DNA of 64,000 bases, from positions 251,591-315,590 of the forward strand of contig JBHYGA010000006.1 in assembly GCA_051859245.1 (NCBI GenBank), given 5' to 3'. Source of the DNA: Gemmatimonadaceae bacterium (GTDB taxonomy: Bacteria; Gemmatimonadota; Gemmatimonadetes; Gemmatimonadales; Gemmatimonadaceae). The position numbers and the translations under genes were made by a program. Of the stretch, positions 47,639 through 62,208 are shown piece by piece (the first letter of the stretch is position 1; every line of letters starts with the position of its first letter). The notes under the pieces are model-generated. The model did not search any database. It saw only the letters and a list, made by a program, of their open reading frames with translations, and had not been told where the DNA came from.

Positions 47639-50163
47639 GCGTTCAGTCCGAGCTCTCCATCGGGCGTGGTGTCCACGTCACCGTTGTCACCCGTGTCACC
47701 GTCGCCCTTGTCATCATCCGGCACCACGCGCGCTACGGCGGTCACCATGTCACCGCTATCGAGCGACACAAACTTCACACCTTGCGTGTTGCGACCAACC
47801 ACGCGCACCTGGTTCATCGACGAGCGAATCGAGATGCCGCCGCGCGTAATCAGCATGATCTCTTCGTCCGACGACACTTCCATGAGCGCCACAATGTGTC
47901 CGGTGCGCTCTGTACGCTTGAGCGTGAGAATGCCCTTGCCACCACGCTTCTGAATGCGGTAGTCGTCGAGCGACGTGCACTTGCCAAGACCCAGCTCGGT
48001 AACCACAAGCAGCGTGGCTTCATTACGACGAATCACCACCATGCCCACCACGGAGTCACCTTCGCTCAGCGTAATGCCCTTCACGCCGGTGGTGTCGCGT
48101 CCCATTTCGCGCACATCCTGCTCATGGAAACGCACTGACATGCCCTGGCGCGTGCCGAGGATGACGTCGCTCGTACCCGTGGTCACCTGCACGTCGATCA
48201 GCTCATCACCTTCTTCGATCTTGATGGCCTTCACGCCGTTGGCACGCACGTTCGAGTACTGCGACAACGCCGTTTTCTTGACGGTGCCGAGCTTGGTACC
48301 GAACAACAGGTACTCGTCATCGCGGAACTCGCGCACCGGCACGATGGCGCGAATACGCGTGTCGGGCGTGACGTTAATAAGGTTCACAATTGGCTTTCCA
48401 CGTGTGGTGCGACCAGCCTGCGGTAACTCGTGCACCTTGAGCCAGTAACAGCGGCCATCATCGGTGAAGATCAGGATGTAGTGATGCGTTGACGTCACAT
48501 ACATCTGTTCCATGAAGTCGCCGTCTTTGAGATCGGCGCCAATCTTGCCGCGACCACCGCGTCCCTGCTTGTTGAACAGCGACACGGCGGTACGCTTGAT
48601 GTATCCCTGACGCGAGATGGTCACCATCATCTCTTCTTCCGCGATCAGATCTTCCACCGAGAACTCGCCTTCATCGCTCACGATCTCGGTGCGACGCTCG
48701 TCTCCGAACGTTTCGCGCACTTTGAGCAGCTCGCCCTTCATGATCGACATGCGACGCTCGCGCGAATCAAGAATGCTGCGCAACTCGGCGATGAACGCAC
48801 GCACTTCGGCGAGTTCTTCTTCGAGCTTATCACGCTCAAGCCCGGTAAGCTTGGCGAGACGCATGTTCAGAATCGCTTCTGCCTGACGCTCGCTCAATCC
48901 AAAGCGGCTCTGCAACTGCGCACTGGCCGTGGGCGTGTCTTCGGCCGCACGAATGAGCGCAATCACTTCGTCGATGTTGTCGACGGCAATCTTGAGACCT
49001 TCCAGGATGTGCTCGCGCTCAACGGCCTTGTCGAGATCAAACTGCGTGCGACGCACGATCACTTCGTGGCGGTGCTTGAGATAGTGCTCGAGCACCTGCT
49101 TGAGGCTCAACACGCGCGGAATCAGGCGGCCCGTTTCATCAGGCACGAGCGCCAGCATGATCACACCGAACGTGCTCTGCATCGCCGTGTGCTTGTACAG
49201 CTGATTGAGCACCACACGCGGAATCGCGTCGCGCTTGAGCTCGACCACCACACGAATACCTTCGCGATCGGATTCGTCGCGCAGCGCAGAGATGCCGGTG
49301 AGCTTGCCGTCACGCACAAGATCGGCAATGTCTTTCACCAGCTTGGCCTTGTTCACCTGGTACGGCACTTCGGTAATGACAATCTGCGACTTGCCGCTCG
49401 ACTCGCGCTCTTCAATCACGGCGCGGGCGCGCATCACAATGCGTCCGCGTCCGGTGTTCTGATAGTCGGCAATGCCCGCGCGGCCGTAGATGTAACCGCC
49501 CGTGGGGAAGTCAGGGCCGGTGACAATGCGACGCAGTGCGTCGGCGTCGAGATCCGGATTGTCGATCAACGCAATCGATGCATCCACCACTTCGCGCAGA
49601 TTGTGCGGCGGAATATTGGTGGCCATACCCACGGCAATGCCCGACGACCCATTGATGAGCAGATTCGGCGCGCCAGCCGGCAGGACGCGCGGCTCTTCAA
49701 GGCGGTCGTCAAAGTTGGGCGCAAAATCGACCGTGTTCTTGTCGATATCGGTGAGCATTTCCACCGCGAGGCGCGTGAGGCGCGCCTCGGTGTATCGATA
49801 GGCGGCGGCGGAGTCACCGTCGATGGAACCAAAGTTTCCTTGCGGATCCACCAGCAGGTAGCGCAGCGAAAAATCCTGCGCCATACGCACGAGTGCGTCG
49901 TACACTGAGCTGTCACCGTGCGGGTGATACTTGCCGAGCACGTCACCAACGACCGTTGCACACTTTTTGAACGGGCGACCCGGCACGAGCCCAAGTTCGT
50001 TCATGGCGTAGAGCACACGCCGGTGCACGGGCTTCAGTCCATCACGTACATCCGGGAGCGCGCGCGAGACAATCACGCTCATGGAATAGTTGATGAACGA
50101 TTCCTTGATTTCCTCGTGAATCATCCGCGGCAGAATGCGATCGCGGGCGTTGGGAGCGGTCAT
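47635..50163 (-). CDS. gyrA: DNA gyrase subunit A
   Basis: [43 protein letters not shown]; GyrA box QGRGGRG; acidic tail. Confidence 0.97.
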
Positions 50164-50244
50164 GGAAGAGGGCGTGGGGAGACGGGAACGGGCCGTAGCA
50201 GAACGGTCGCGCGGGAGTTGCGCGAGTGTGCGGCCAAGCCTGAA

Positions 50245-50273
50245 AATCTACTTGATCGCACGCTGTAAATCAA
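50245..50273 (-). promoter_or_regulatory. Sigma70-like promoter of gyrA
   Basis: Minus strand TTGATT-N17-TAGATT in a locally AT-rich patch. Confidence 0.5.
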
Positions 50274-50312
50274 CTTTGCGCTAGTCGCGCAAGTCGTTGT
50301 GCGGCAACGCTT

Positions 50313-51209
50313 TCAGCGCGTTGCGCCGATCTCGCGTTCGGGCTTGACAACGGCCTCGGGGCCCGTCTGCGAAGCGGCCGGCTCGGAGTCCGCGCTCACA
50401 CGCTGCGCCACATCAAACTCGGTGGTCGCCGCGAACTCTTCGGTGTCCGGAAAGTCCTCGGCTTCGTCGGCCGCGGCTTCCCGCTCAACCAGTTCACGCT
50501 CGGCCCGGTAGCGGGAGTACCAGCTGCGCGTGATTTCCCCGGCGAGCTCACGATTGCCCAGCCCGAAGGCCAGGCCGAGCGCGAGTGCCACGGCGCCAAA
50601 GAGGATGCCAAAGGCGATGGTCACGATGTTCGTGGCCACGCCGATCTCCTGCAGCGCCATGAACACAGCCAGCACGATGACGCTGCCGCGTCCGACACGG
50701 GCCAGCGCGGCGGCCCCGATCACGGCACCGGCAGCGGCACGAATCAGCCCCTCCACGAAGCCGCCGAGCACGATGCCGACAATCACGATCACCAGGGCCG
50801 CAATAATGCCCGGGATGTACGACAGCAGCTCGCTGAACACGCCGGCCAGCGACTCGAGCCCGATCGCGTTGGCGGCGATCAGCAACACCGAGAACATCAC
50901 GCCCCAGAACAGGAACGAGGCGACCACACGGGCCGGATTGATGGGCGTGCCCGAGCGGGCCACCGCCTCCAGTACGCCGCCGCGGTCCAGGACGTCGTTG
51001 AACCGCACGCGGCGCAGCAGGCGGTGCACTCCCTTTTCGATGAGCTTCGCCGCGAGGTAGCCGGCAAAGAGAATCACGAGCGCGCCAAAGAGCGCCGGCA
51101 CGAACTCGGCGATCAGTGTGAAGCTGTACTCGAGTCGCTCGGTGAAGCTGTCGGGGAGCGGTGCCGCCGCCTGAATCAGGCCCGGCGCAAAAAGCACGGT
51201 CTGGAGCAT
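50313..51209 (-). CDS. MscS-associated TM_helix repeat membrane protein (CmpX-like)
   Basis: Duplicated 'FVPALFGALVIL'/'YIPGIIAALVI' repeats; ALGLAFGLGNRE. Confidence 0.8.
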   Translation of the reverse strand: MLQTVLFAPGLIQAAAPLPDSFTERLEYSFTLIAEFVPALFGALVILFAGYLAAKLIEKGVHRLLRRVRFNDVLDRGGVLEAVARSGTPINPARVVASFLFWGVMFSVLLIAANAIGLESLAGVFSELLSYIPGIIAALVIVIVGIVLGGFVEGLIRAAAGAVIGAAALARVGRGSVIVLAVFMALQEIGVATNIVTIAFGILFGAVALALGLAFGLGNRELAGEITRSWYSRYRAERELVEREAAADEAEDFPDTEEFAATTEFDVAQRVSADSEPAASQTGPEAVVKPEREIGATR

Positions 51210-51265
51210 GTCTGCGAATCTACACGCGAATGCAAGCCGCCACAGATGTGGCGTGCGGCCGCATC

Positions 51266-51320
51266 GTCAGGGCGCGTCGCGTCAGGGCGCGTCGTATAAG
51301 GACGCGTCAGGCCGCGTCGC
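51266..51320. repeat. 15-bp direct repeat x3 at the 3' end of the BLUF gene
   Basis: GTCAGG(G/C)CGCGTCG(C/T) at 51266, 51281 and 51306; the last copy contains the BLUF stop codon. Confidence 0.8.
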
Positions 51321-51747
51321 GCCGCTCAGCGTCGGCCAGTGCGGAAAGAAAGCGACTGGCCTGGTCCGCCGTCATGAGAAAGGGATCGAACACCGACTGG
51401 CTGGCGAGACGCTGCAGCAGCACGCGACGCGGCGCGGTTGGTATGTCTTCGGCTCCCACAAGACGCATTGCCCAGTCCGCGAAATCGCGTCGCTCAATGG
51501 CCTGCGCTGACAACAGGGTGCAGCGCTGATGTCTCCGATCTTTCACGATACGGTTGTACAGCGCGTTCACCGTATCGCGATTGCCTTCCAACACCTGCAG
51601 AAACTTGTTGCTGCTGTACACCAGCATGCCGGTGACATCGTGCGCGGTGTTGTGTGCAACGGCGCGCTGCAGCAGCGCGGTAAGCGACGCGTAGCTCGTG
51701 TACTCCGGATGCGCTTCGCTCGCATAAATGAGTCGAATGGTCTGCAT
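51307..51747 (-). CDS. Stand-alone BLUF blue-light photoreceptor
   Basis: IRLIYAS (Tyr), AHN (Asn), VTGML, FLQVLEG (Gln), LYNRIVKDRRH, RDFADWAM (Trp-Met); start ATG 51747, 146 aa. Confidence 0.93.
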   Translation of the reverse strand: MQTIRLIYASEAHPEYTSYASLTALLQRAVAHNTAHDVTGMLVYSSNKFLQVLEGNRDTVNALYNRIVKDRRHQRCTLLSAQAIERRDFADWAMRLVGAEDIPTAPRRVLLQRLASQSVFDPFLMTADQASRFLSALADAERRDAA

Positions 51748-51755
51748 GATGAAGA

Positions 51756-51849
51756 TTGTCGACGGCTCGCACCGAATACTTGACGCCCAATCGTTTTCAA
51801 AAACTGGAATCGTTCGCTGGCTAATGTCCTGACACAAAGGTTCCGATAC
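51756..51849. promoter_or_regulatory. Possible divergent sigma28-like promoters for BLUF and cheA
   Basis: Minus strand TCAA-N16-GTCGACAA (51783-51756); plus strand TAAT-N16-TCCGATAC (51822-51849); both are imperfect matches. Confidence 0.4.
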
Positions 51850-51924
51850 CTGTGGACACATCGATACGACGCCGTAGTCGGTGGTTGAGCACATTCTCTT
51901 TCCGAGCGATGGCGGAACCGCTAC

Positions 51925-54495
51925 ATGGACGACCTGCTGCGTGACTTCCTGACGGAGAGTTCGGAGAACCTCGCGCGACTCGACAATGATCTGATTGCGC
52001 TGGAGCGACGTCCCGAGGACGCTTCGCCGTTGAACAGCGTATTCCGCACGGTGCACACGATCAAAGGGACCTGCGGATTTCTCGGTCTCACGCGCCTTGA
52101 GACCGTCGCGCACTCCGCGGAAAACCTGCTCGACGCTATGCGCGCCGGTCGCCTTCCGGTTTCGCCAGCGCTCATTAACGATGTGCTCGCTGCGGTTGAC
52201 CAGATCAAGCGCATACTGCAAGCGCTGGAGCAGCATGAGAGAGAACCGGCAGGAGACGATCAGGCGCTGATCGCGACACTGGATGCCTGGATCGCCACGG
52301 ATTCGCCACGCGTCGCATCGAACGTACAGCCGCCCGCTCCCGTCGTTGCCGCGACAATAGAGTCACCTGAACGATCAGGTCCGAGCAGCAGCGCGTCGTC
52401 GGCCACAACCTCTGCAGAACCGGACAATGTCGGCGAAGCGCGTTCTGCGATTGCCGACAGCACGCTCCGCGTCAGCGTTGGCTTGCTTGACGAGCTGATG
52501 AATCTGGTGGGAGAACTCGCCCTCAGCCGAAATCAGCTCGCACAACTTGCCGCGGTTGACGAACAATCAGTGTTCATGCATCCGGTGCAGCATCTCAATC
52601 GCGTGACGACCGACCTGCTCGACGCGGTGCTGCGGACGCGCATGCAACCCATCGGCAATGCGTGGACCAAACTCCCGCGACTCGTGCGCGACCTCAGCAG
52701 CGCCGCGGGAAAGCAGATCACGTTGGTTATGCACGGCGCGGAGACCGAACTCGACCGACAGATCCTGCAAGCGATTCAGGACCCGCTCACGCACATGGTG
52801 CGCAACTCCGCAGATCACGGTGTTGAAGACCCGAAGACACGACGCGCGGCGGGAAAGCCCGAGCAGGGGACGGTACGACTAAGCGCTCGACACGAAGGCG
52901 GTCATGTCATCATCGAGATCGCCGATGATGGACGTGGCATCGACGTGGACCGTGTGCGTCGCAAAGCCGTGGAACGCGGACTGGTGCGCGCCGATGTTGC
53001 GCAGTCACTCAGCGATATGCAGGTGTTGCGTTTCGTGTTCGAACCGGGATTCAGCACCGCGGAAACGGTCACCAACGTGTCTGGGCGCGGCGTGGGGATG
53101 GATGTGGTGCGCAGCAATATCGAATCGATCGGTGGATCCGTGGAGCTGCAGTCGGAGTTTGGCCGCGGCGCAACCGTTCGTATTCGTATTCCACTCACGC
53201 TGGCGATTGTGTCGGCGCTCATTGTGGAGTGCGCCGGCGAATCCTTTGCGGTTCCACAAATCGGCGTGGTCGAGCTGGTACGCGTGACTGAGGAAAAGCA
53301 GCATCTGCTGGAGCATGTCAATGGCGCCCGTTTCTTTCGATTGCGCGATGTTCTGCTGCCCCTTGTCGACTTGCACGGACTGCTCGCACTCGACGCACGC
53401 GACAGCCTGGAAACGCAGAGCATCGTGGTGTGTCAGGTCGGACAGACGCGGTTCGGGCTGGTGGTCGATGAGGTGTTCGACACCGCAGAGATCGTGGTCA
53501 AGCCGGTAGGACGTCTCGTCAAGCATCTGGGCGCGTACGCGGGCTGCACGATCACCGGCGATGGTCGCGTGATCATGATTCTTGATCCGTCCGGCGTTGC
53601 AAACATGGCCGACATCAACGGACGATCGACGCGTGATACGGACGCCGAGTCTGACGCGCAGCTGCGGCGGCAGGAAGCGCAGTCGGCGACGGAAAGCATT
53701 CTGCTCTTCGATGCGGGATTCCCCGCGCTGCAGGCGGTACCCCTCTCGCTGGTTGCACGGCTGGAGGAGTTCGCACCGGACACGTTTGAAGAAGCGGACG
53801 GCCAGTATCTGGTCCAGTATCGCGGTGCGCTTATTCCCATTATTCCGTCGAATGCCGCCATGGACATGCGCGCCGTGAATCCTCGACCCGTCATTGTCTT
53901 TGACGACGGCGGACAGACGATGGGCCTGGCGGTGGAAGCGGTGCGCGACATTGTGGACGATCACATTCGCATCGAGCGCGGCGCATCACGCGCTGGCGTG
54001 CTGGGCGTGTGCGTGATCAACGGTAAGGCGACCGAGGTCGTGGATACGGACTACTTCTTGCGACTCGCCCATGGAGACTGGCACGCGGCGCGGCGCGCAC
54101 ACAGCGGCGTTGCGTCGCCACGTGTGCTGATTGTGGACGACTCGCGCTTCTTTCTCGGCCTGCTCTCGCCCGCACTGCGCGCCGCCGGATTCGATGTCAC
54201 GTCCTCCACCGGAGGCGAGAGCGCACTGGCGCGACTGGAAGCGGGTGAAGTGTTCGACCTGCTCGTGAGTGATATCGAAATGGACGGGATGGACGGATTT
54301 GCGTTGGCAACCTCCGTGCGCAGCAATCCGTCGTGGGCGCACATGCAGTTGATGGCGCTTACGACACGCAACAGCATAAGCGATCGCGCGCGCGGCCTCG
54401 AAGCCGGTTTTGATGTCTATCTGCCAAAGTTTGACCGCGAATCTGTGGTGGCAGCGATTCGCAGCCTCCTCTCTACCGAGCGAGCGGCCGCATGA
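51925..54495 (+). CDS. cheA: Hybrid chemotaxis kinase CheA (HPT-dimerisation-HATPase-CheW-CheW-REC)
   Basis: FRTVHTIKG, HMVRNSADHG, DDGRG, PGFSTA...SGRGVGMDVV, IPLTLAI; second CheW-like domain; C-terminal REC. Confidence 0.96.
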   Translation: MDDLLRDFLTESSENLARLDNDLIALERRPEDASPLNSVFRTVHTIKGTCGFLGLTRLETVAHSAENLLDAMRAGRLPVSPALINDVLAAVDQIKRILQALEQHEREPAGDDQALIATLDAWIATDSPRVASNVQPPAPVVAATIESPERSGPSSSASSATTSAEPDNVGEARSAIADSTLRVSVGLLDELMNLVGELALSRNQLAQLAAVDEQSVFMHPVQHLNRVTTDLLDAVLRTRMQPIGNAWTKLPRLVRDLSSAAGKQITLVMHGAETELDRQILQAIQDPLTHMVRNSADHGVEDPKTRRAAGKPEQGTVRLSARHEGGHVIIEIADDGRGIDVDRVRRKAVERGLVRADVAQSLSDMQVLRFVFEPGFSTAETVTNVSGRGVGMDVVRSNIESIGGSVELQSEFGRGATVRIRIPLTLAIVSALIVECAGESFAVPQIGVVELVRVTEEKQHLLEHVNGARFFRLRDVLLPLVDLHGLLALDARDSLETQSIVVCQVGQTRFGLVVDEVFDTAEIVVKPVGRLVKHLGAYAGCTITGDGRVIMILDPSGVANMADINGRSTRDTDAESDAQLRRQEAQSATESILLFDAGFPALQAVPLSLVARLEEFAPDTFEEADGQYLVQYRGALIPIIPSNAAMDMRAVNPRPVIVFDDGGQTMGLAVEAVRDIVDDHIRIERGASRAGVLGVCVINGKATEVVDTDYFLRLAHGDWHAARRAHSGVASPRVLIVDDSRFFLGLLSPALRAAGFDVTSSTGGESALARLEAGEVFDLLVSDIEMDGMDGFALATSVRSNPSWAHMQLMALTTRNSISDRARGLEAGFDVYLPKFDRESVVAAIRSLLSTERAAA

Positions 54496-55001
54496 ACGCC
54501 ACCATGCATGCGTCAGGCGCTGCCGCATCTCGCGGCACTGCAAACACGTTGTCAGCGTCAGCCAACACGTCAAAGGAGTTTGTGACGTTCGTGCTGGCCA
54601 ATCAGTGGCTGGGTATTCCTGTGGGCGCCGTGCAGGAAGTGCTTGTGGCGCAGCGCATCGCGCGTGTGCCACTCGCGCCGGTCGCGATTGCAGGGTTTCT
54701 CAATCTGCGCGGGCAGATCGTAACGGCGATCGACCTGCGAACCACACTGGGGCTTCCGTTGCGCGCGGGTGGCGAGCCCTTCATGAACGTTGTTGTCCGC
54801 CAGGAAGGCGAGTTGTTCGCGTTCATGGTCGACGATGTCGGAGATGTTCTCGCGGTCGATAGCGATACGATCGAGGACACTCCGGCGACGCTCGACGCGC
54901 GTTGGCGCAGCGCGTGCTCCGGCATTGTGCGCCGCGAGTCGGATTTGCTGCTCATTCTCGATGTGCAGGCATTTCTTCGTCTGGATCAGCCGACCACCTG
55001 A
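54492..55001 (+). CDS. cheW: Chemotaxis coupling protein CheW
   Basis: FVTF, VQEV, VPLAP..IAGFLNLRGQIVTAIDLR, VDDVGDV. Confidence 0.95.
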   Translation: MNATMHASGAAASRGTANTLSASANTSKEFVTFVLANQWLGIPVGAVQEVLVAQRIARVPLAPVAIAGFLNLRGQIVTAIDLRTTLGLPLRAGGEPFMNVVVRQEGELFAFMVDDVGDVLAVDSDTIEDTPATLDARWRSACSGIVRRESDLLLILDVQAFLRLDQPTT

Positions 55002-55059
55002 GGCGCCGACCGCGCCAATCGCTCCCACACTGTCCTCACTATCACCGCAAGGAACTGCC

Positions 55060-56718
55060 ATGCCTACCAAGACCCCTGTCCGTCCACGTGCTCGCGGCGC
55101 CGCCGCGCCCGCAACCACGCGTCGCAAGGCAACAACCGCATCCACCGATGGCGCACTTCAGCTTCGACTCGCGGACTACGAAGGCCAACTGAACGCGATC
55201 GGTCGTTCAATGGCGGTGATTGAGTTCGACGTTGACGGGACGGTGCTCACCGCCAACGAAAACTTTCTGAACGCGGTGGGCTACTCGCTTGCCGAAGTGC
55301 AGGGTCGTCATCACTCCATGTTCTGCGACCCGACGTACGTGGCGGGCGTTGAGTACCGCGAGTTCTGGGCCAAGCTCAATCGCGGCGAGTTCCATACCGG
55401 TGAATACGATCGCGTTGGCAAAGGCGGCCGGCATCTTGCCCTGCAGGCAACGTACAATCCGGTACGTGATGGTGAAGGACGCGTGATCAAGGTGGTGAAG
55501 TTCGCAACGGACATTACGGCGACCGTGCGCATGCGGCGCGACATGGCGGTGTTCAAACCCATGGTTGAATCTGCGCGCATCAACCTCATGCTGTGTGATC
55601 TGGATTTCAACATCACGTACATCAATCCCGCATCACTCGCGACGCTCAAGCGCATTGAGCAGCACTTGCCGGTCAAGGCCGCCGACGTGGTGGGGTCCAA
55701 GATCGACATCTTTCACAAGGACCCGGAACATCAGCGTCGCATGCTGGCCACGGACCGGCATCTCCCGCACAATGCCAAGATTCGTGTCGGCCCGGAAACG
55801 CTTGATCTCACCGCCGTCGCCATTTACGACGAACATGGCAAGTACGTGGGTCCGATGGTGAACTGGGACATCATCACCGAGCGCGTGAAGATGGCCGACG
55901 AGTTCGAGTCGAGCGTGATGGCGATTGCGAGTGTGGTGAGCTCTTCCTCCACCGAACTGGAGGCCAGCGCGCAGGGCATGGCCGCGTCGTCGGAAGAGAC
56001 CACGCGACAGGCCCAGGCCGTTGCCGCCGCATCCGAACAGGCCACGCGCAATGTGCAGACCGTCGCCAGCTCGGCGGAGGAGCTGACGGCCAGCATTCGT
56101 GAAATCGCCGGACGCGTTCAGGACGCAAGCAGCATTTCACAAGCCGCCGTGCGTCAGGCGGCCGACACAACGGAAACGATGGCACGTCTCGGTGTGTCGA
56201 GCCAGGAAATCGGACAGGTCGTGAAGGTGATTACCAGCATTGCACAGCAAACCAACCTGCTTGCGCTCAACGCAACGATTGAAGCGGCACGTGCTGGCGA
56301 AGCCGGTAAAGGGTTCGCGGTGGTTGCCAACGAAGTGAAGGAGCTCGCGCGCCAGACCGCGCGCGCGACGGAAGAAATCGGCACCAAGATCACTGGTGTG
56401 CAGTCGGAAACCGCATCGGCGGTCGCGGCCATCAAGGATATCACCAACGTGATCCACAAGATCAACGAAATCTCAACCACCATTGCCAGTGCGGTGGAAG
56501 AACAGAACGCGGCGACCGGTGAGATCTCGCGCAACGTTGGTGAAGCGGCGCGCGGTACGGCCGAGGTCAGTTCAAGCATCAGCATGGTGACGCAGGTCGC
56601 GTTGGAAGGCGCGCAAACAGCCGAGAACATCAAGAGCGCGGCTGGCCAGCTGTCTGTGGAATCAGAGCGTCTGAACCTCTCGGTGACCGAGTTCCTGACG
56701 CGCATGCGCAAACTCTGA
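55060..56718 (+). CDS. Soluble PAS-PAS chemoreceptor
   Basis: No TM; PAS1 AVIEF...ANENFL...HHSMF...FWAKL...ATYNP; PAS2 IDIFHKDPEHQRRML...[23 protein letters not shown]; start ATG 55060. Confidence 0.92.
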   Translation: MPTKTPVRPRARGAAAPATTRRKATTASTDGALQLRLADYEGQLNAIGRSMAVIEFDVDGTVLTANENFLNAVGYSLAEVQGRHHSMFCDPTYVAGVEYREFWAKLNRGEFHTGEYDRVGKGGRHLALQATYNPVRDGEGRVIKVVKFATDITATVRMRRDMAVFKPMVESARINLMLCDLDFNITYINPASLATLKRIEQHLPVKAADVVGSKIDIFHKDPEHQRRMLATDRHLPHNAKIRVGPETLDLTAVAIYDEHGKYVGPMVNWDIITERVKMADEFESSVMAIASVVSSSSTELEASAQGMAASSEETTRQAQAVAAASEQATRNVQTVASSAEELTASIREIAGRVQDASSISQAAVRQAADTTETMARLGVSSQEIGQVVKVITSIAQQTNLLALNATIEAARAGEAGKGFAVVANEVKELARQTARATEEIGTKITGVQSETASAVAAIKDITNVIHKINEISTTIASAVEEQNAATGEISRNVGEAARGTAEVSSSISMVTQVALEGAQTAENIKSAAGQLSVESERLNLSVTEFLTRMRKL

Positions 56719-56729
56719 TAGGAGCCCTC

Positions 56730-57098
56730 ATGAAGCGCATACTGGTCATCGATGATTCGATGGCGATTCGTAAGGCGATCCGACGGATCCTCGAAGGCAT
56801 GGGATACTCCGTAGCGGAAGCGGGGGACGGCGCGCAGGGGTTGAGCGCGCTGGACCTCGCTCCCGCGCCGGACGCGATTCTGTGCGACGTGGACATGCCA
56901 GTCATGGACGGACTGCAGTTCCTTAGCGCGTTGCGCGCGCAAAACAGACCGAGTGCGCCACCGGTCATCATGTGCACCACGCACACGGCGTTTGACAAGA
57001 TCACCGACGCACTCTCGCTCGGCGCGAGCGAGTACATCATGAAGCCGTTCGACGCCGAGATCATTGGCTCGAAGCTTGAGGCGTGCGGCGTCCAGTGA
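56730..57098 (+). CDS. cheY: Single-domain response regulator CheY
   Basis: IDDS, CDVDMP, MCTT, YIMKPF. Confidence 0.92.
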   Translation: MKRILVIDDSMAIRKAIRRILEGMGYSVAEAGDGAQGLSALDLAPAPDAILCDVDMPVMDGLQFLSALRAQNRPSAPPVIMCTTHTAFDKITDALSLGASEYIMKPFDAEIIGSKLEACGVQ

Positions 57099-58183
57099 TC
57101 AAGCCCGATGACGCCATCCGCGTGCTCATTGTTGACGACAGCGCTGTCATTCGTGGCGCGCTCGGACGCATCGTCGATGAGCAGTCCGACTTGCGCGTTG
57201 TCACCACCGCACCGAACGGTCGCGTGGCCCTGGATGCACTGCGTCATACCGTGGTTGACGTTGTATTGCTCGACATTGAAATGCCGGAAATGGATGGACT
57301 GACGGCGCTGCCGCTCATTCTGCGTCAGTATCCGAACACGCGCGTCATCATGGCCAGCAGCCTTACGCAGCGTGGTGCAGAAATCACCATGCAGGCCATG
57401 GCACTGGGCGCGTCTGATTTCATTGCCAAACCGGCCGCAAAAAGCGGCACGGCGGCGCTCACCGCGCTCACGGTCGAGATCGCCTCGAAGGTTCGCGCAA
57501 TCGGACGCGCGGCCCGGGGGAAACCCAAGGCACCGCCGGCGAAAGAGTTTGCGCACGCTCCTTTGCGGACAGAAGTGCTGGCCGCACGATCGAGCGATGC
57601 ACCGCCACGACTGCTGGCCATTGCCGCGAGCACCGGTGGTCCGAACGCGCTGGCCGAAGTGCTCAGCAGTCTACCGCACGACTTCCCACTGCCGATCGTG
57701 ATTACGCAGCATATGCCGCCGGTGTTCACGACACTGCTCGCGCAGCGACTCGAGCGCGACAGCGGTCGCCCGTGCGCCGAGGCACAAGATGGTGCGCCGA
57801 TGCTCCCCAATCATACCTACATCGCTCCGGGCGGATTTCATATGCTGGTTCAAACGCACGAAGGCCGCGCGTTCACGCGCCTCACGCAAACAGAGCCGGA
57901 AAATTTCTGTCGGCCCTCGGCCGACCCGATGCTGCGTTCCGCCGCGGCAGTGTACGGCGCATCAACCTTCGGCGTGGTGCTCACGGGCATGGGTGAGGAT
58001 GGCCGCGAGGGATGCCGCGAAGTGCATCGTCGTGGCGGACGCATCATTGTGCAGGATGAAGCCTCGAGTGTGGTGTGGGGGATGCCAGGCGCGGTAGCAA
58101 ACGCCGGGTTGGCGCATGATGTGCTGCCGCTCAACCAGATCGCGCAGGCCATCTTGCAGCAGTGCGGAGCGCTGACCACATGA
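57095..58183 (+). CDS. cheB: Chemotaxis methylesterase CheB
   Basis: REC domain plus ASTGGP, TQHMP, PSADP, LTGMGEDG, SVVWGMPG. Confidence 0.96.
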   Translation: MIKPDDAIRVLIVDDSAVIRGALGRIVDEQSDLRVVTTAPNGRVALDALRHTVVDVVLLDIEMPEMDGLTALPLILRQYPNTRVIMASSLTQRGAEITMQAMALGASDFIAKPAAKSGTAALTALTVEIASKVRAIGRAARGKPKAPPAKEFAHAPLRTEVLAARSSDAPPRLLAIAASTGGPNALAEVLSSLPHDFPLPIVITQHMPPVFTTLLAQRLERDSGRPCAEAQDGAPMLPNHTYIAPGGFHMLVQTHEGRAFTRLTQTEPENFCRPSADPMLRSAAAVYGASTFGVVLTGMGEDGREGCREVHRRGGRIIVQDEASSVVWGMPGAVANAGLAHDVLPLNQIAQAILQQCGALTT

Positions 58184-59037
58184 TCAGTGCGCCAGACTAC
58201 GAATTCCTGAGCGAGTTGCTCAAGCGCCGGAGCGGCCTCACGCTGGGACCGGGCAAGGAGTACCTGATTGAAAGCCGTCTTCCCCCGGTGGCCGTGACGT
58301 ACGGTTACGCCGACGTGAACGCGTTGATTCAGGCGCTGCGCGGCACGCCGCAACCCGCCATGGTGAAGCATGTGTGCGACGCCATGACAACAAACGAAAC
58401 GCTGTTCTTTCGCGACAATAAGCCGTTCGTTGCGCTGGAGAATGAGCTGTTGCCAGCAGCCGCGAAGCGAGCGCGCGATGCGGGCCGACCGCTACGCATC
58501 TGGTGCGCGGCGGCGTCCACCGGACAGGAGCCCTACTCGATCGCGATGATTGTGGCCAAAGTTGAACCGCAACTGCTCGGTACACGCGTCGAAATTCTGG
58601 CCACGGATTTTTCGACCGCCGTACTGTCGCGCGCGAAATCGGGCCTGTACAACCAGTTCGAGATCCAGCGCGGTCTGCCAGTGCAGCTCATGATGAAGCA
58701 CTTCAAGCAGACGCCCGAAGGATTTCAGCTCAACGATGATGTGCGGAAGCGCGTCACGTTTCAGGAGAACAACTTGCTGGATCCGTTTCCGGCGTCGTGG
58801 CAGTTCGATATCATCTTCTGCCGCAATGTGCTGATCTACTTTGATGTGGCCACCAAGAAGGCGGTGCTGGACCGCATGGCCGCCTTGCTCACCAAGGGTG
58901 GTTCGATCTTTCTGGGCGGTACGGAAAGCACGCTAGGCGTGACCGACTCGCTCGTGCGCGTGCCCAATCATCCGGCCGGGCTCTGCTGCAAACCCATCGA
59001 TCTCGATGTGCACGCGAGCACCAGTCGAGCGGCCTGA
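58180..59037 (+). CDS. cheR: Chemotaxis methyltransferase CheR
   Basis: TTNETLFFRD, IWCAAASTGQEPYS, FDIIFCRNVLIYF. Confidence 0.96.
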   Translation: MISAPDYEFLSELLKRRSGLTLGPGKEYLIESRLPPVAVTYGYADVNALIQALRGTPQPAMVKHVCDAMTTNETLFFRDNKPFVALENELLPAAAKRARDAGRPLRIWCAAASTGQEPYSIAMIVAKVEPQLLGTRVEILATDFSTAVLSRAKSGLYNQFEIQRGLPVQLMMKHFKQTPEGFQLNDDVRKRVTFQENNLLDPFPASWQFDIIFCRNVLIYFDVATKKAVLDRMAALLTKGGSIFLGGTESTLGVTDSLVRVPNHPAGLCCKPIDLDVHASTSRAA

Positions 59038-59054
59038 TACGGGAGCGCATGCAA

Positions 59055-59076
59055 CCTCAGGCCGTTCGGCCTGAGG
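59055..59076. terminator. Hairpin between convergent cheR and a hypothetical gene
   Basis: CCTCAGGCC-GTTC-GGCCTGAGG perfect stem; no U-tract. Confidence 0.45.
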
Positions 59077-59397
59077 CTACTCGAGCCAGATTTCAACCTG
59101 ACGATTGGATTCCCGCAGCGAAAAGATCGAGCGCGGAAATAGCTCCTCAGCGCGATGAAGTTCGATCGCCAGCGCGTCCAGTGGAATGTCTTCCGCGCGA
59201 ATCCGTTTCACGACGTCGTCAGGAATGATGTCGATCAGCCACTTGGCGCTGCGTGCGGGAAGCGAGACGCGCACGCGCTCCTCGCCATCACGCACCACGG
59301 TGACCATCAGATTTTTCGCCGGCTGCGAAGCATCAATGTGGCGCGGCACGCCACTCGAGAAGAGTCCGCGGACCCAGGTGTAGGGACAGCCTGCCAT
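59077..59397 (-). CDS. Hypothetical protein
   Basis: GGGAG RBS before ATG 59397; 106 aa globular-looking sequence; start uncertain. Confidence 0.6.
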   Translation of the reverse strand: MAGCPYTWVRGLFSSGVPRHIDASQPAKNLMVTVVRDGEERVRVSLPARSAKWLIDIIPDDVVKRIRAEDIPLDALAIELHRAEELFPRSIFSLRESNRQVEIWLE

Positions 59398-59526
59398 ACG
59401 CACTCCCGAAGATGGTGACGACGTACGGCGCATGACGCGGTCCGCACGTTTCGGAGTGTCGGCAGCGGGAAGAGCAGAGTGAAATGCGCCCGTTCCCTCG
59501 GGGCACCACTCGCGACCCACACCGTG

Positions 59527-59754
59527 TCAGGTACGCGTGCCCCGCTGCGCGTCAAAGAGCACACTGCGCTTGCACGATGGGCAGAGCAGCCACTCGCGTC
59601 GACGCGAGTACCCGAGTCCGAAGCTGCCACCACCAATGGCGCGGTGACGCAGTGGCACATCGCAACGCGGACAAATCGCCGACGCGTCACGCGCGTAGGC
59701 CTCGCGGAGCGCCTTCTCTTCGATGGGCGTATACGACGCGGAATCGGCGTTCAT
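59527..59754 (-). CDS. Small zinc-ribbon protein
   Basis: CPRC...CPSC; ATGA overlap with the upstream oxidoreductase gene. Confidence 0.7.
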   Translation of the reverse strand: MNADSASYTPIEEKALREAYARDASAICPRCDVPLRHRAIGGGSFGLGYSRRREWLLCPSCKRSVLFDAQRGTRT

Positions 59755-60809
59755 GGTGCGACGCGCACCACGACTTTGCCGAACTGCTCGCCCGACGACA
59801 ACCGCTCGTACGCCGCCCGCCCATCCACGAGCGGATACACGGAATCAACGGGCGGCAACAGGTTGCCTTCGCGCAGTTGTTGCGCAATCGCCGCAAACTC
59901 ACTGTCGCTGCCCATGGTGGAACCCATCAGCGTCCACTGGTTCCAGAACATGCGGCGCACATCGGTTTGCACCATCGGTCCTGAGGTACCACCGCACGTG
60001 ACAAGTCGACCGCGCTTGCCGAGCGCGATCAGCGATTGCGTCCACGTGGCCTCACCCACACTGTCGATCACCACATCCATGCCGCGCTTGTTCGTTGCCA
60101 GGCGCACCTGTTTGCCGGCGTCACCGGCGCGATGATTGATCACATGATCGGCGCCAAGCTGCTGCGCGCGCGCGAGTTTGTCATCACTGCCCGACGTTAC
60201 CCACACGGTGGCGCCAAGCGATTTGCAAATCTGCAACGCCGCCAGCGCAACGCCGCCCCCTATGCCCCAGATGAGCACATGATCACCCGCACGAACGCGC
60301 GCACGGGTTGTCACCATGCGCCACGCGGTGAGTGTCGCCAACGGAAAGGCCGCGGCCTCGGCCCATGAAATCGTATCTGGAACCACTTCCAGATTGGCCG
60401 CCGGAACAACGACATAATCCGCCAGGGTCCCCGGTCGGTGCTCACCAAGCACGCCGTACGTAAGGCACAGCGGCTGATCGCCGTCGCGGCAGTATTCACA
60501 CGTGCACGATCGATCAACCACACCCGGGTTGATGATCACCCGTTGTCCAACGCGCACGTTGTGCACGTCGGAGCCAACCGCGTCAACTACGCCCGCGCCA
60601 TCGGAGCCCACCACCCACTTGGGTGTGATGTGCACACCGGGAATGCCGCCGAGCACCCAGAGATCAAGTCGGTTCAGTGCGGCGGCGTGCACGCGCACGC
60701 GCACATCGGTGGCCGTGGTGAGTTGTGGCACCGGTACGTCGTCGCGCATTTCGAGTTGCGACAGGTCACCGTGGGCTGAGATCGTCAGGGCGCGCATCGT
60801 GAGAGGCAT
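59751..60809 (-). CDS. MDR-family (Zn-ADH-like/quinone oxidoreductase) dehydrogenase
   Basis: AAALNRLD and GSDGAG (catalytic Zn ligands replaced); structural CTCEYC...C retained; GIGGGV; FGKVV. Confidence 0.9.
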   Translation of the reverse strand: MPLTMRALTISAHGDLSQLEMRDDVPVPQLTTATDVRVRVHAAALNRLDLWVLGGIPGVHITPKWVVGSDGAGVVDAVGSDVHNVRVGQRVIINPGVVDRSCTCEYCRDGDQPLCLTYGVLGEHRPGTLADYVVVPAANLEVVPDTISWAEAAAFPLATLTAWRMVTTRARVRAGDHVLIWGIGGGVALAALQICKSLGATVWVTSGSDDKLARAQQLGADHVINHRAGDAGKQVRLATNKRGMDVVIDSVGEATWTQSLIALGKRGRLVTCGGTSGPMVQTDVRRMFWNQWTLMGSTMGSDSEFAAIAQQLREGNLLPPVDSVYPLVDGRAAYERLSSGEQFGKVVVRVAP

Positions 60810-60936
60810 CGGCTCAAGGTAGATCGGCGTTGCCCCGCACGAAATGCCCGGTCCCCGCTCTATATTTCGCAGAATCCCCAACTCCACGTCGGGCGGTTGT
60901 CTTTCGTCCGTCGCATCCCACTGTCCAGCGTTTGCC

Positions 60937-62208
60937 ATGGCGTCCTTCCAAGTTCCCCCGCTCGGTGAATCCATCGTCGAAGCCACCGTCTCCCGCTGGC
61001 TCAAGCAGGTTGGCGAGGCCGTTGCGGCCGGTGAAACCCTGGTTGAGCTCGAAACCGACAAGATCACGGTGGAAGTGCCGGCACTTGAAGCAGGTACGCT
61101 GAGCGCGCGTCACAAGAACGAAGGCGACGTGGTGAACGTGGGCGACGCGCTGGGTGAGGTCACCGGTGGTGCGCCGTCCGCCGGAGCGCCGTCCGCCAGT
61201 GCGCCGGCAGCTGCGGCCCCAGCAGCGGCCGCACCCGCCCCAAGTGCCCCCGCTGCGGCAGCGGCGCCCGCAGCCGCGGCCCCAGCAGCGGCCGGAGCGG
61301 ACCCCAAGGCCTCACCCGCGGCTCGCCGCACCGCCGCCGAAACGGGCACCGATCTCTCACAGGTCGCCGGCACGGGACGCGGTGGCGTAGTGGCCAAGGT
61401 TGATGTCATTGCCGCCAGCAAGAGCGCGCCCGCTGCTGCACCAGCCGCTGCACCGGCCTCGCCGGCCGCCAAGGCACCGGCGTCGGCCCCGCGGGCTGCG
61501 ACCAGCGACGGCCCGCGCGAAACGCGTGAAAAGATGACCACGCGTCGCAAGCGCATTGCCGAAAACCTGCTGCAGTCGCAGCACAACACGGCGCACCTGA
61601 CCACGTTCAACGAAATCGACATGACGGCCGTGTCGGCGCTGCGTGATCGCATGCGTGACAAGGTGGAAAAAACGCACGGCCTGCGTCTCTCGTTCATGCC
61701 GTTCTTTGCGAAGGCGGCGTGCCTCGCGCTCGAAGCGTACCCCACGGTGAACGCGCAGCTCGACGGTGATCACATTGTGTACCACCACTACGTGAATCTT
61801 GGCATTGCCGTCGCGAGTGACGCTGGACTTGTGGTGCCGAACATCAAGGACGCCAACACGCGTTCACTGATCGAGATCGGTCACGACATTGGCGCGGTGG
61901 CCAAAAAAGCGCGTGATGGCAAGCTCGGAATTGATGATCTCATGGGCGGCACGTTCACGATCACCAACGGTGGCGTGTTTGGTTCGCTCGTCTCCACACC
62001 GATCATCAACTATCCGCAGGTTGGCATTCTTGGATTGCACAAGATCCAGGATCGCCCGGTGGCCGAAAACGGACAGGTGGTGATTCGCCCCATGATGTAC
62101 GTGGCGCTGTCGTACGATCATCGCATTATCGACGGCCAGCAGGCGGTGCTCTTCCTCGTGCGCGTGAAAGAGCTCATGGAAGACCCGGCCTCAATGCTTT
62201 TGTACTGA
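60937..62208 (+). CDS. sucB: 2-oxoglutarate dehydrogenase E2 (dihydrolipoamide succinyltransferase)
   Basis: [14 protein letters not shown] lipoyl site, [35 protein letters not shown]; start ATG 60937. Confidence 0.95.

Follow-up and report, generated by a model that had tools for sequence, protein, structure and literature searches.

What does a short blue-light receptor do beside a complete set of chemotaxis genes? The question is raised by a 64,000-nucleotide stretch of a Gemmatimonadaceae genome (contig JBHYGA010000006.1, positions 251,591 to 315,590; the window), in which a stand-alone BLUF photoreceptor gene is oriented head-to-head with a complete che operon. BLUF and the che genes were seen to be inherited and lost together, to have separate promoters of the sigma28-like kind, and to retain intact motifs for sensing and signalling. 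On this sequence basis, the locus probably represents an accessory, FliA-driven taxis cassette of the F5 type that integrates oxygen/redox conditions and blue light, with BLUF biasing it through one cassette protein. The linkage of BLUF to che is not due to chance, and the cassette is a real module maintained by selection, made of known parts in an arrangement not described before. A literature search that covered few subscription papers found no description of this cassette and no link from BLUF to a flagellar Che system with a defined partner.

The cassette occupies approximately 51230..59520 of the window. The BLUF gene (51307..51747, minus strand) encodes a short, PixD-like protein of 146 aa, and the gene calls place the cheA ATG exactly 177 bp away, the distance given in the preliminary description of this DNA. 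The plus strand carries cheA (51925..54495; Hpt, dimerisation, HATPase, CheW, CheW, and REC domains), cheW (54492..55001), the gene of a soluble chemoreceptor (55060..56718), cheY (56730..57098), cheB (57095..58183; REC and methylesterase domains, GTG start), and cheR (58180..59037; clade-specific loop residues Pro204 and Trp207, or W207). These genes were assigned by domain searches, complemented by structure-database matches for the receptor. The catalytic and phospho-acceptor motifs are intact in the Che proteins across the cassette, including CheY and CheB. The cheA/cheW, cheY/cheB, and cheB/cheR junctions are ATGA or GTGA overlaps, and translation of the che genes is coupled.

Convergent to cheR lies an open reading frame (ORF) of 106 aa (59077..59397, minus strand), which was overlooked earlier and belongs to the cassette block. 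Its product is a conserved protein without a known family, with an N-terminal MxxCPYTW motif; Pfam gave no match and the ESM Atlas returned unnamed clusters only. The ORF was found in 12 of 251 genomes of the family, every one with the cassette CheA clade, and adjoins cheR in nine. A sigma28-like promoter (59456..59483, minus strand; score 14.8) precedes it; a score of at least 13 was reached in three of the 12 homologues, and the others were weaker. A stretch of about 215 bp just outside the cassette edge (window 59531-59747) is 74–80% conserved across the genus and could encode a small protein or an RNA; an Rfam search over window 49000-62000, this stretch included, gave no match at E ≤ 0.5.

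Among the 251 genomes sampled, 27 from 13 genera carry the cassette CheA clade (E ≤ 1e-120), 17 carry any BLUF, and 33 carry pufLM. BLUF is divergent from the cassette cheA in ten (G000, G008, G013, G133, G179, G112, G227, G198, G160, and G211), which belong to genera g1 (three), g56 (one), g11 (four), and g61 (two) and differ in their upstream neighbours. Each of these ten is pufLM+; among the remaining 17 carriers of the CheA clade, none gave a BLUF match and three are pufLM+. Two further divergent cases (G014 and G445) lie beyond the sample. The annotation of Gemmatimonas phototrophica AP64 contains the same block as RS15830-RS15865, with BLUF as RS15830, cheA as RS15835, and cheY as RS15850 (PMC9862903 supplement); the word 'BLUF' does not occur in the main texts of the two AP64 papers, PMC9862903 and PMC11406998. 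A metagenome scan yielded 21 loci, comprising 13 with a divergent cheA, a nearly identical pair in which only a remnant of cheA is left, and six that were uninformative or distant. Because loci from different tools may overlap, the genome and metagenome counts were not summed, and AP64 was not counted as an extra genome. In a phylum sample of 401 genomes, the cassette's BLUF clade occurred in the family Gemmatimonadaceae only. The BLUF-cheA adjacency, noted earlier at this one locus, is kept across four genera and in AP64; the refutation that the preliminary description tied to a lack of conserved adjacency did not come about. A second, independent BLUF-che association is possible in a pufLM+ genome (G470; L221:8100-17731), where an unrelated BLUF (tree distance 4.1) lies on the same strand, downstream in a different cheA-cheW-PAS-PAS receptor-cheY-cheB-cheR cluster; genes named by eye as CheX-like and GAF-like follow, and its CheR lacks W207.

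Imperfect sigma28-like boxes had been reported to point both ways from the intergenic region, and this was borne out. The site of the che operon (51822..51849, plus strand) lies at a conserved position 41–75 nt ahead of cheA in 25 loci, which formed the training set of our matrix; the matrix was seeded with the E. coli sigma28 consensus and trained on the cheA strand alone. The BLUF site (51756..51783, minus strand; score 15.9, shuffle p 0.005) has its -10 box end 8 nt from the ATG. The best matrix site on the BLUF strand ends 7–9 nt before the ATG in 25/25 loci, with a shuffle p ≤ 0.05 in 23, these related loci not being independent. The BLUF promoter keeps its distance constant across spacers of 145 to 397 bp between BLUF and cheA and at BLUF identities down to 37–64%. 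The same matrix marked fliC (14.4), flgM (12.9), flgL (17.7), several receptors, and the 106-aa ORF in the host genome; the conserved -35 and -10 boxes of the cassette, with a core spacing of 15–16 nt, are shared with fliC and flgM, and fliA is present. Because the matrix is permissive genome-wide (151 sites of at least 14), position and conservation, rather than score, carry the promoter argument. A search of 51100-52000 gave no sigma70-type site. The sigma28-like BLUF promoter is missing at the ten other BLUF loci tested, including paralogues that have departed from the cassette. From the placement of the -10 box 7–9 nt from the ATG, we infer that the BLUF mRNA is leaderless or nearly so. 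Other sigma28-like sites end 8 nt before an ATG (G000 C1:629584, C1:1190305, and C4:167745), and FliA transcripts without a leader may be widespread in the host lineage.

We then considered the history of the block. In a tree of CheA, CheB, and CheR with three outgroups only, from which G168 and G250 were left out as incomplete, the 11 BLUF-linked operons (11 of 25 rows) form one clade with a support of 1.0; therefore, one evolutionary event links the cassette to phototrophy. The sister operons carry globin-PAS, GAF-GAF, or 4HB receptors instead, indicating a single addition of BLUF to an operon of the oxygen/energy type that was already in place. Loci L113, L114, and L117–L119, mostly from non-phototrophic genera, have a globin-PAS-PAS soluble receptor followed by a major facilitator superfamily gene and resemble the Corallococcus globin-PAS aerotaxis cluster. 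Of ten genus-mates searched, eight have a clean empty site and two gave no match. In the empty sites, an 8.3-kb block (BLUF, six che genes, and the 106-aa ORF) is gone whole, and the MscS-TM gene is joined to window position ~59525. Despite this absence of the cassette in genus-mates, flagellin persists in 13 of 14. In a flanking-gene tree of 11 genomes, the carriers are not monophyletic (approximately unbiased test, p 2e-38), yet the cassette occupies one site, which implies that the whole block was lost repeatedly, or regained there by recombination.

The view of the locus as a horizontally acquired module was not supported: its composition is host-like (GC 0.616; third-position GC 0.70–0.81), members of the CheA clade occur in 27 of the 251 genomes, and the polyphyletic carriers share one site. 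Recent transfer is ruled out by the host-like composition, the polyphyletic carriers, and the lack of a mobility gene among the window ORFs. The cassette appears to be old and ameliorated, and the pattern fits repeated loss of an old cassette. An ancient transfer is plausible because the best named outside CheA relatives, in a plasmid collection only, are alphaproteobacterial (~50% identity).

The BLUF protein has one PF04940 domain only (E 7.6e-29, over the Pfam cut-off), and its best PDB matches are Tll0078 and Slr1694 (residues 2–140). The predicted structure (pLDDT 89.5) contains both cap helices and superimposes on PixD with TM scores of 0.88–0.91 at 33–39% identity. A Tyr, an Asn, a Gln, and a Trp-Met pair have established roles in the BLUF flavin pocket; the photocycle residues claimed earlier (Y8, N33, Q51, W92, and M94) are all present, and these pocket residues are invariant in 25/25 che-linked homologues. 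The cap residues T104, R107, R108, E141, and R142 occur in 23–25 of the 25 linked BLUFs versus 1–16% of 99 outside BLUFs, and the cap helices are the expected site of a partner surface. Paralogues that have departed from the cassette keep R108 in only three of eight and R113 in none. A derived paralogue clade of genus g61 (L022, L189–L192, and L203) was also observed, flanked by a methyltransferase gene on one side and a methylmalonyl-CoA mutase-like gene on the other (named by eye). This clade nests within the che-linked BLUF clade, mostly lies beside the mutase gene, and has no sigma28-like promoter. No Che domain was detected in the ten longer BLUF matches scanned, from the best 150, with no search aimed at longer forms. 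The host genome has a single BLUF gene. Several phototrophic relatives encode AppA-like BLUF-SCHIC/B12-binding proteins of ~360–385 aa (L063:766-1842 of G013, L015:1408-2517 of G001, L016 of G004, and L206 of G470; Pfam was run on L063 and L015 only), and none was found in the window's genome.

The first PAS domain of the receptor (PAS1; Trp103) matches domains that bind flavin adenine dinucleotide (FAD), namely 3ewk and E. coli Aer (E ~5e-8), and is present in 11/11 linked receptors. PAS2 (His219 and Trp269) matches the Aer2-type haem PAS (6ceq, E 3e-19; Aer2 3vol, E 3e-12), and its His motif was found in ten of the 11, being missing in G179. Both the proximal His and the C-terminal Trp, a residue of recognised function in Aer2, are aligned in PAS2. 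No HAMP domain was matched in the receptor by the domain search; because flanking HAMPs are lacking, it is not an Aer2 orthologue and has only an Aer2-like PAS. These domains support the oxygen part of the light/oxygen taxis system suggested earlier. The receptor shares the FAD-PAS Trp, haem-PAS His, and C-terminal Trp with AerC/Aer and Aer2 (as described in passages of PMC13401364) and differs from them in combining both PAS types in one HAMP-less soluble protein. By gap pattern, it equals the receptor of the Rhodovastum cluster and differs from seven of eight other host receptors; it may be of the heptad class 38H that marks cognate receptors of F5.

A CheA with a duplicated CheW domain, with or without REC, is a mark of class F5. 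The cassette CheA has this duplication and the gene order is A-W-Y-B-R, in agreement with the F5-like layout recognised earlier. The closest named relatives of this CheA belong to the Gemmatimonadota, including G. phototrophica, and beyond them the Azospirillum CheAs are nearest. The cheA(W-W-REC)-W-Y-B-R order, with ~50% CheA identity to the Azospirillum cheA-W-Y-B-R cluster, is that of Azospirillum Che1, Azorhizobium che, and Rhodospirillum centenum Che1, of which Azospirillum Che1 is assigned to F5 (PMC8429497, in part). In contrast to these systems, the cassette has a non-proteobacterial host and a cognate soluble receptor within the operon, and REC was lost in two genera (6/11 full-length BLUF-linked CheAs). 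No BLUF was found beside the three named F5 outgroup clusters examined.

The host genome (4.70 Mb, 99.9% complete) contains flagellin, FliA, nine receptors, and two further che clusters, and the cassette is considered accessory because of these other receptors and clusters. A check for photosynthesis genes, proposed earlier, detected pufL and pufM; the host is thus a non-proteobacterial phototroph. A rhodopsin search gave no match, but the control query matched nowhere either. A separate cheY-cheZ-like-cheA-cheW-cheR-cheB cluster adjoins fliC. Another che cluster (L182; G000 C5:750-770k) encodes CheC, CheD, and a CheA with a P2 domain; interspersed among these genes are those of a small MglA-like GTPase, a double ATPase of the DnaA type, and two DUF4388-TPR proteins. 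We take DUF4388 to be PATAN. The N-terminus of FliM is a peptide of the CheY-docking type with Asp for Glu, and the strict peptide pattern had no match.

How such a system would operate can be outlined, with every signalling step inferred from sequence. The soluble receptor would read O2 through its haem PAS and electron-transport redox through its FAD PAS, and would control CheA. CheA would signal to CheY, which would act on the flagellar switch through the docking peptide of FliM, and CheB and CheR would provide adaptation. Blue light would alter the C-terminal cap helices of the effector-less BLUF, which would then bind or release one cassette Che protein and bias swimming, most plausibly from bright light to dim, micro-oxic water.

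Which cassette protein would be the partner? CheR is the best candidate on sequence grounds, as a lead. Among the six Che proteins, it has the most clade-specific positions (18/281, 6.4%, versus 1.6–3.7% for the other five). These cluster at 191–214 and include a Gly-to-Trp change (W207) before the FDIIFCRN motif, invariant in 97/97 crown-clade sequences. A complex prediction for CheR and BLUF (alignments of 11 rows each) scored 0.01 against a mark of 0.32; the controls were not folded, and the score speaks neither for nor against this pair. As one form of the favoured cassette reading, light-gated receptor methylation through CheR, by analogy with c-di-GMP/MapZ acting on CheR1, is possible though doubtful. 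The CheA core, CheW, CheY, and CheB taken jointly are somewhat less likely, the soluble receptor a little less again, and the 106-aa product very improbable. The latter is ruled out as an obligatory partner by its absence from G179 and its unlinked occurrence in three BLUF-less genomes. The preliminary description had BLUF feeding light into CheA or the receptor; CheA-REC is ruled out as a conserved partner, since six of the 11 linked CheAs lack REC. A bolder possibility, rather less likely than not, is that BLUF docks directly on CheR or else on the soluble receptor, within a flagellar F5 system. Gating by blue light would then serve as a dedicated photoreceptor input and reset the oxygen-taxis set point of an anoxygenic phototroph.

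Known systems offer partial parallels. Like PixD (Slr1694, Tll0078), which acts on motility through a partner in cyanobacteria (PMC5812497, in part), the cassette BLUF is stand-alone and short and has the same fold with two cap helices. It differs in its flagellar rather than type IV pilus context, its full methylation-adapting Che system, and its sigma28-like leaderless promoter; because no cassette protein has a PATAN-REC domain, it is PixD-like but not a member of a PixD-PixE pair. In Pseudomonas aeruginosa, the small sensor MapZ acts on CheR1 with its C-terminal helix, which bears an Arg-Arg pair (bioRxiv 2020.02.11.943704, in part), and Ppr of R. centenum binds CheW in the Ppr-CheW/CheAY system (PMC5812497). 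Both differ from the cassette BLUF in fold and signal, and Tll0078 also has Arg-Arg at that place, so the analogy serves as a lead only. The BLUF of Spongiibacter nanhainus (I6N98_15960) is likewise near a chemotaxis cluster, and its deletion alters motility in blue light; its effect is on expression, the drawing of the cluster skips 4-kb and 33-kb stretches, and neither a partner nor conservation of synteny is shown (PMC8805636, in part).

Expression data for AP64 bear on these possibilities. In an 8-h calcium contrast, BLUF had a log2 fold change of 1.02 (false discovery rate [FDR] 0.04; ~41st of ~3,905 genes), and cheA (~21st), cheW, the receptor gene, cheB, and cheR had 1.25–1.43. This contrast, alone among the contrasts, also induced cbb3 oxidase and hemN, and bchE rose too; the flanking genes (0.09 and 0.25), the BLUF paralogue (0.06), and fliC (0.35) did not follow (all PMC9862903 supplement). 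Light and O2 shifts did not induce the cassette (PMC11406998 Tables S1–S3). This makes it less likely that BLUF controls transcription and is in keeping with action after translation. AP64 favours low O2 and low light (PMC11406998).

Several observations weigh against the light- and oxygen-integrating cassette. W207 is also present in ten basal CheRs just outside the crown clade, of whatever genomic context, and the clade-specific residues may reflect shared ancestry, the comparison resting on one branch. The receptor changed on the same branch, its signalling domain having a similar relative stem length (0.60 versus 0.56). The cassette has no PATAN-REC protein, the type to which the PixD partner PixE belongs. 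BLUF-cheA co-expression over 19 AP64 contrasts (r 0.73) falls to 0.10 without the two extreme ones. The cassette is missing from 23 of the 33 pufLM+ genomes, and the association with phototrophy (Fisher p 3e-5) is overstated because of the single origin. In the near-identical metagenome loci L129 and L130, BLUF and its promoter are kept beside a mere cheA remnant. In pufLM-less genomes of another family (L197 of G339, L200 of G422, and L196 of G412), a different, unrelated BLUF subfamily has sigma28-like sites, ending 7 nt before the start in L197 and L200 and 4 nt in L196, with no che operon within ~8 kb.

The last two observations fit an alternative that we regard as rather unlikely but worth keeping in view, in which BLUF belongs to the motility regulon and is co-expressed with the cassette but has its target outside it; examples would be a c-di-GMP enzyme, a motor protein, or a PATAN-like protein. 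PapB-PapA exemplifies BLUF signalling to a c-di-GMP enzyme. BLUF has its own promoter and not operon membership, and two DUF4388 proteins are encoded in another che cluster (C5) of the host. However, BLUF was lost with the che genes in 8/8 empty sites and was not kept elsewhere in those genomes, and the linkage has held in four genera as flanks changed. It is improbable that BLUF acts in the cassette pathway with an output other than flagellar switching (aggregation, swimming speed, or attachment). Another full che cluster lies beside fliC, flagellated relatives live without the cassette, and five of the nine host receptors are of another length class and two match that of the cassette receptor, which would suit such an output; the stand-alone CheY, the sigma28-like promoters, the FliM docking peptide, and the flagellar taxis driven by F5 systems in Azorhizobium (PMC8429497) argue against it.

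Control of che operon expression in light by BLUF, as proposed for S. nanhainus, where BLUF deletion ended the blue-light induction of che genes (PMC8805636), has slightly less to recommend it. BLUF and cheA do share a divergent region, but the cassette encodes no transcription factor, and in dark-to-light shifts of AP64 BLUF was never significantly changed and the che genes stayed level or were modestly lower (cheB -0.5 to -0.7, FDR < 0.01 at 8 h; PMC11406998). Least credible is hitch-hiking, in which BLUF landed beside cheA once and was inherited without a functional link. A single origin and a block removable in one deletion would be expected from it, but promoter conservation largely refutes it: the promoter distance has stayed fixed while spacer length and BLUF sequence changed, and the relocated paralogues without the promoter are the strongest argument against it.

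To our knowledge, most stand-alone BLUF proteins have no known partner; here, genomics narrows the likely partners of one of them to about seven co-inherited proteins. If the proposed mechanism is true, a CheR or receptor gated by light would offer a small optogenetic handle on chemotaxis. Among anoxygenic phototrophs, photomovement has been characterised in purple bacteria only, mostly as indirect sensing via electron transport (passages of PMC5812497). AP64, which is cultured and flagellated, does little to regulate its photosynthesis genes and is restricted to dim light and low oxygen (PMC11406998, in part). The cassette is expressed in AP64, and behavioural avoidance could be its way of coping. 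These results suggest that the host group of light-harvesting freshwater bacteria steers by light and oxygen together.

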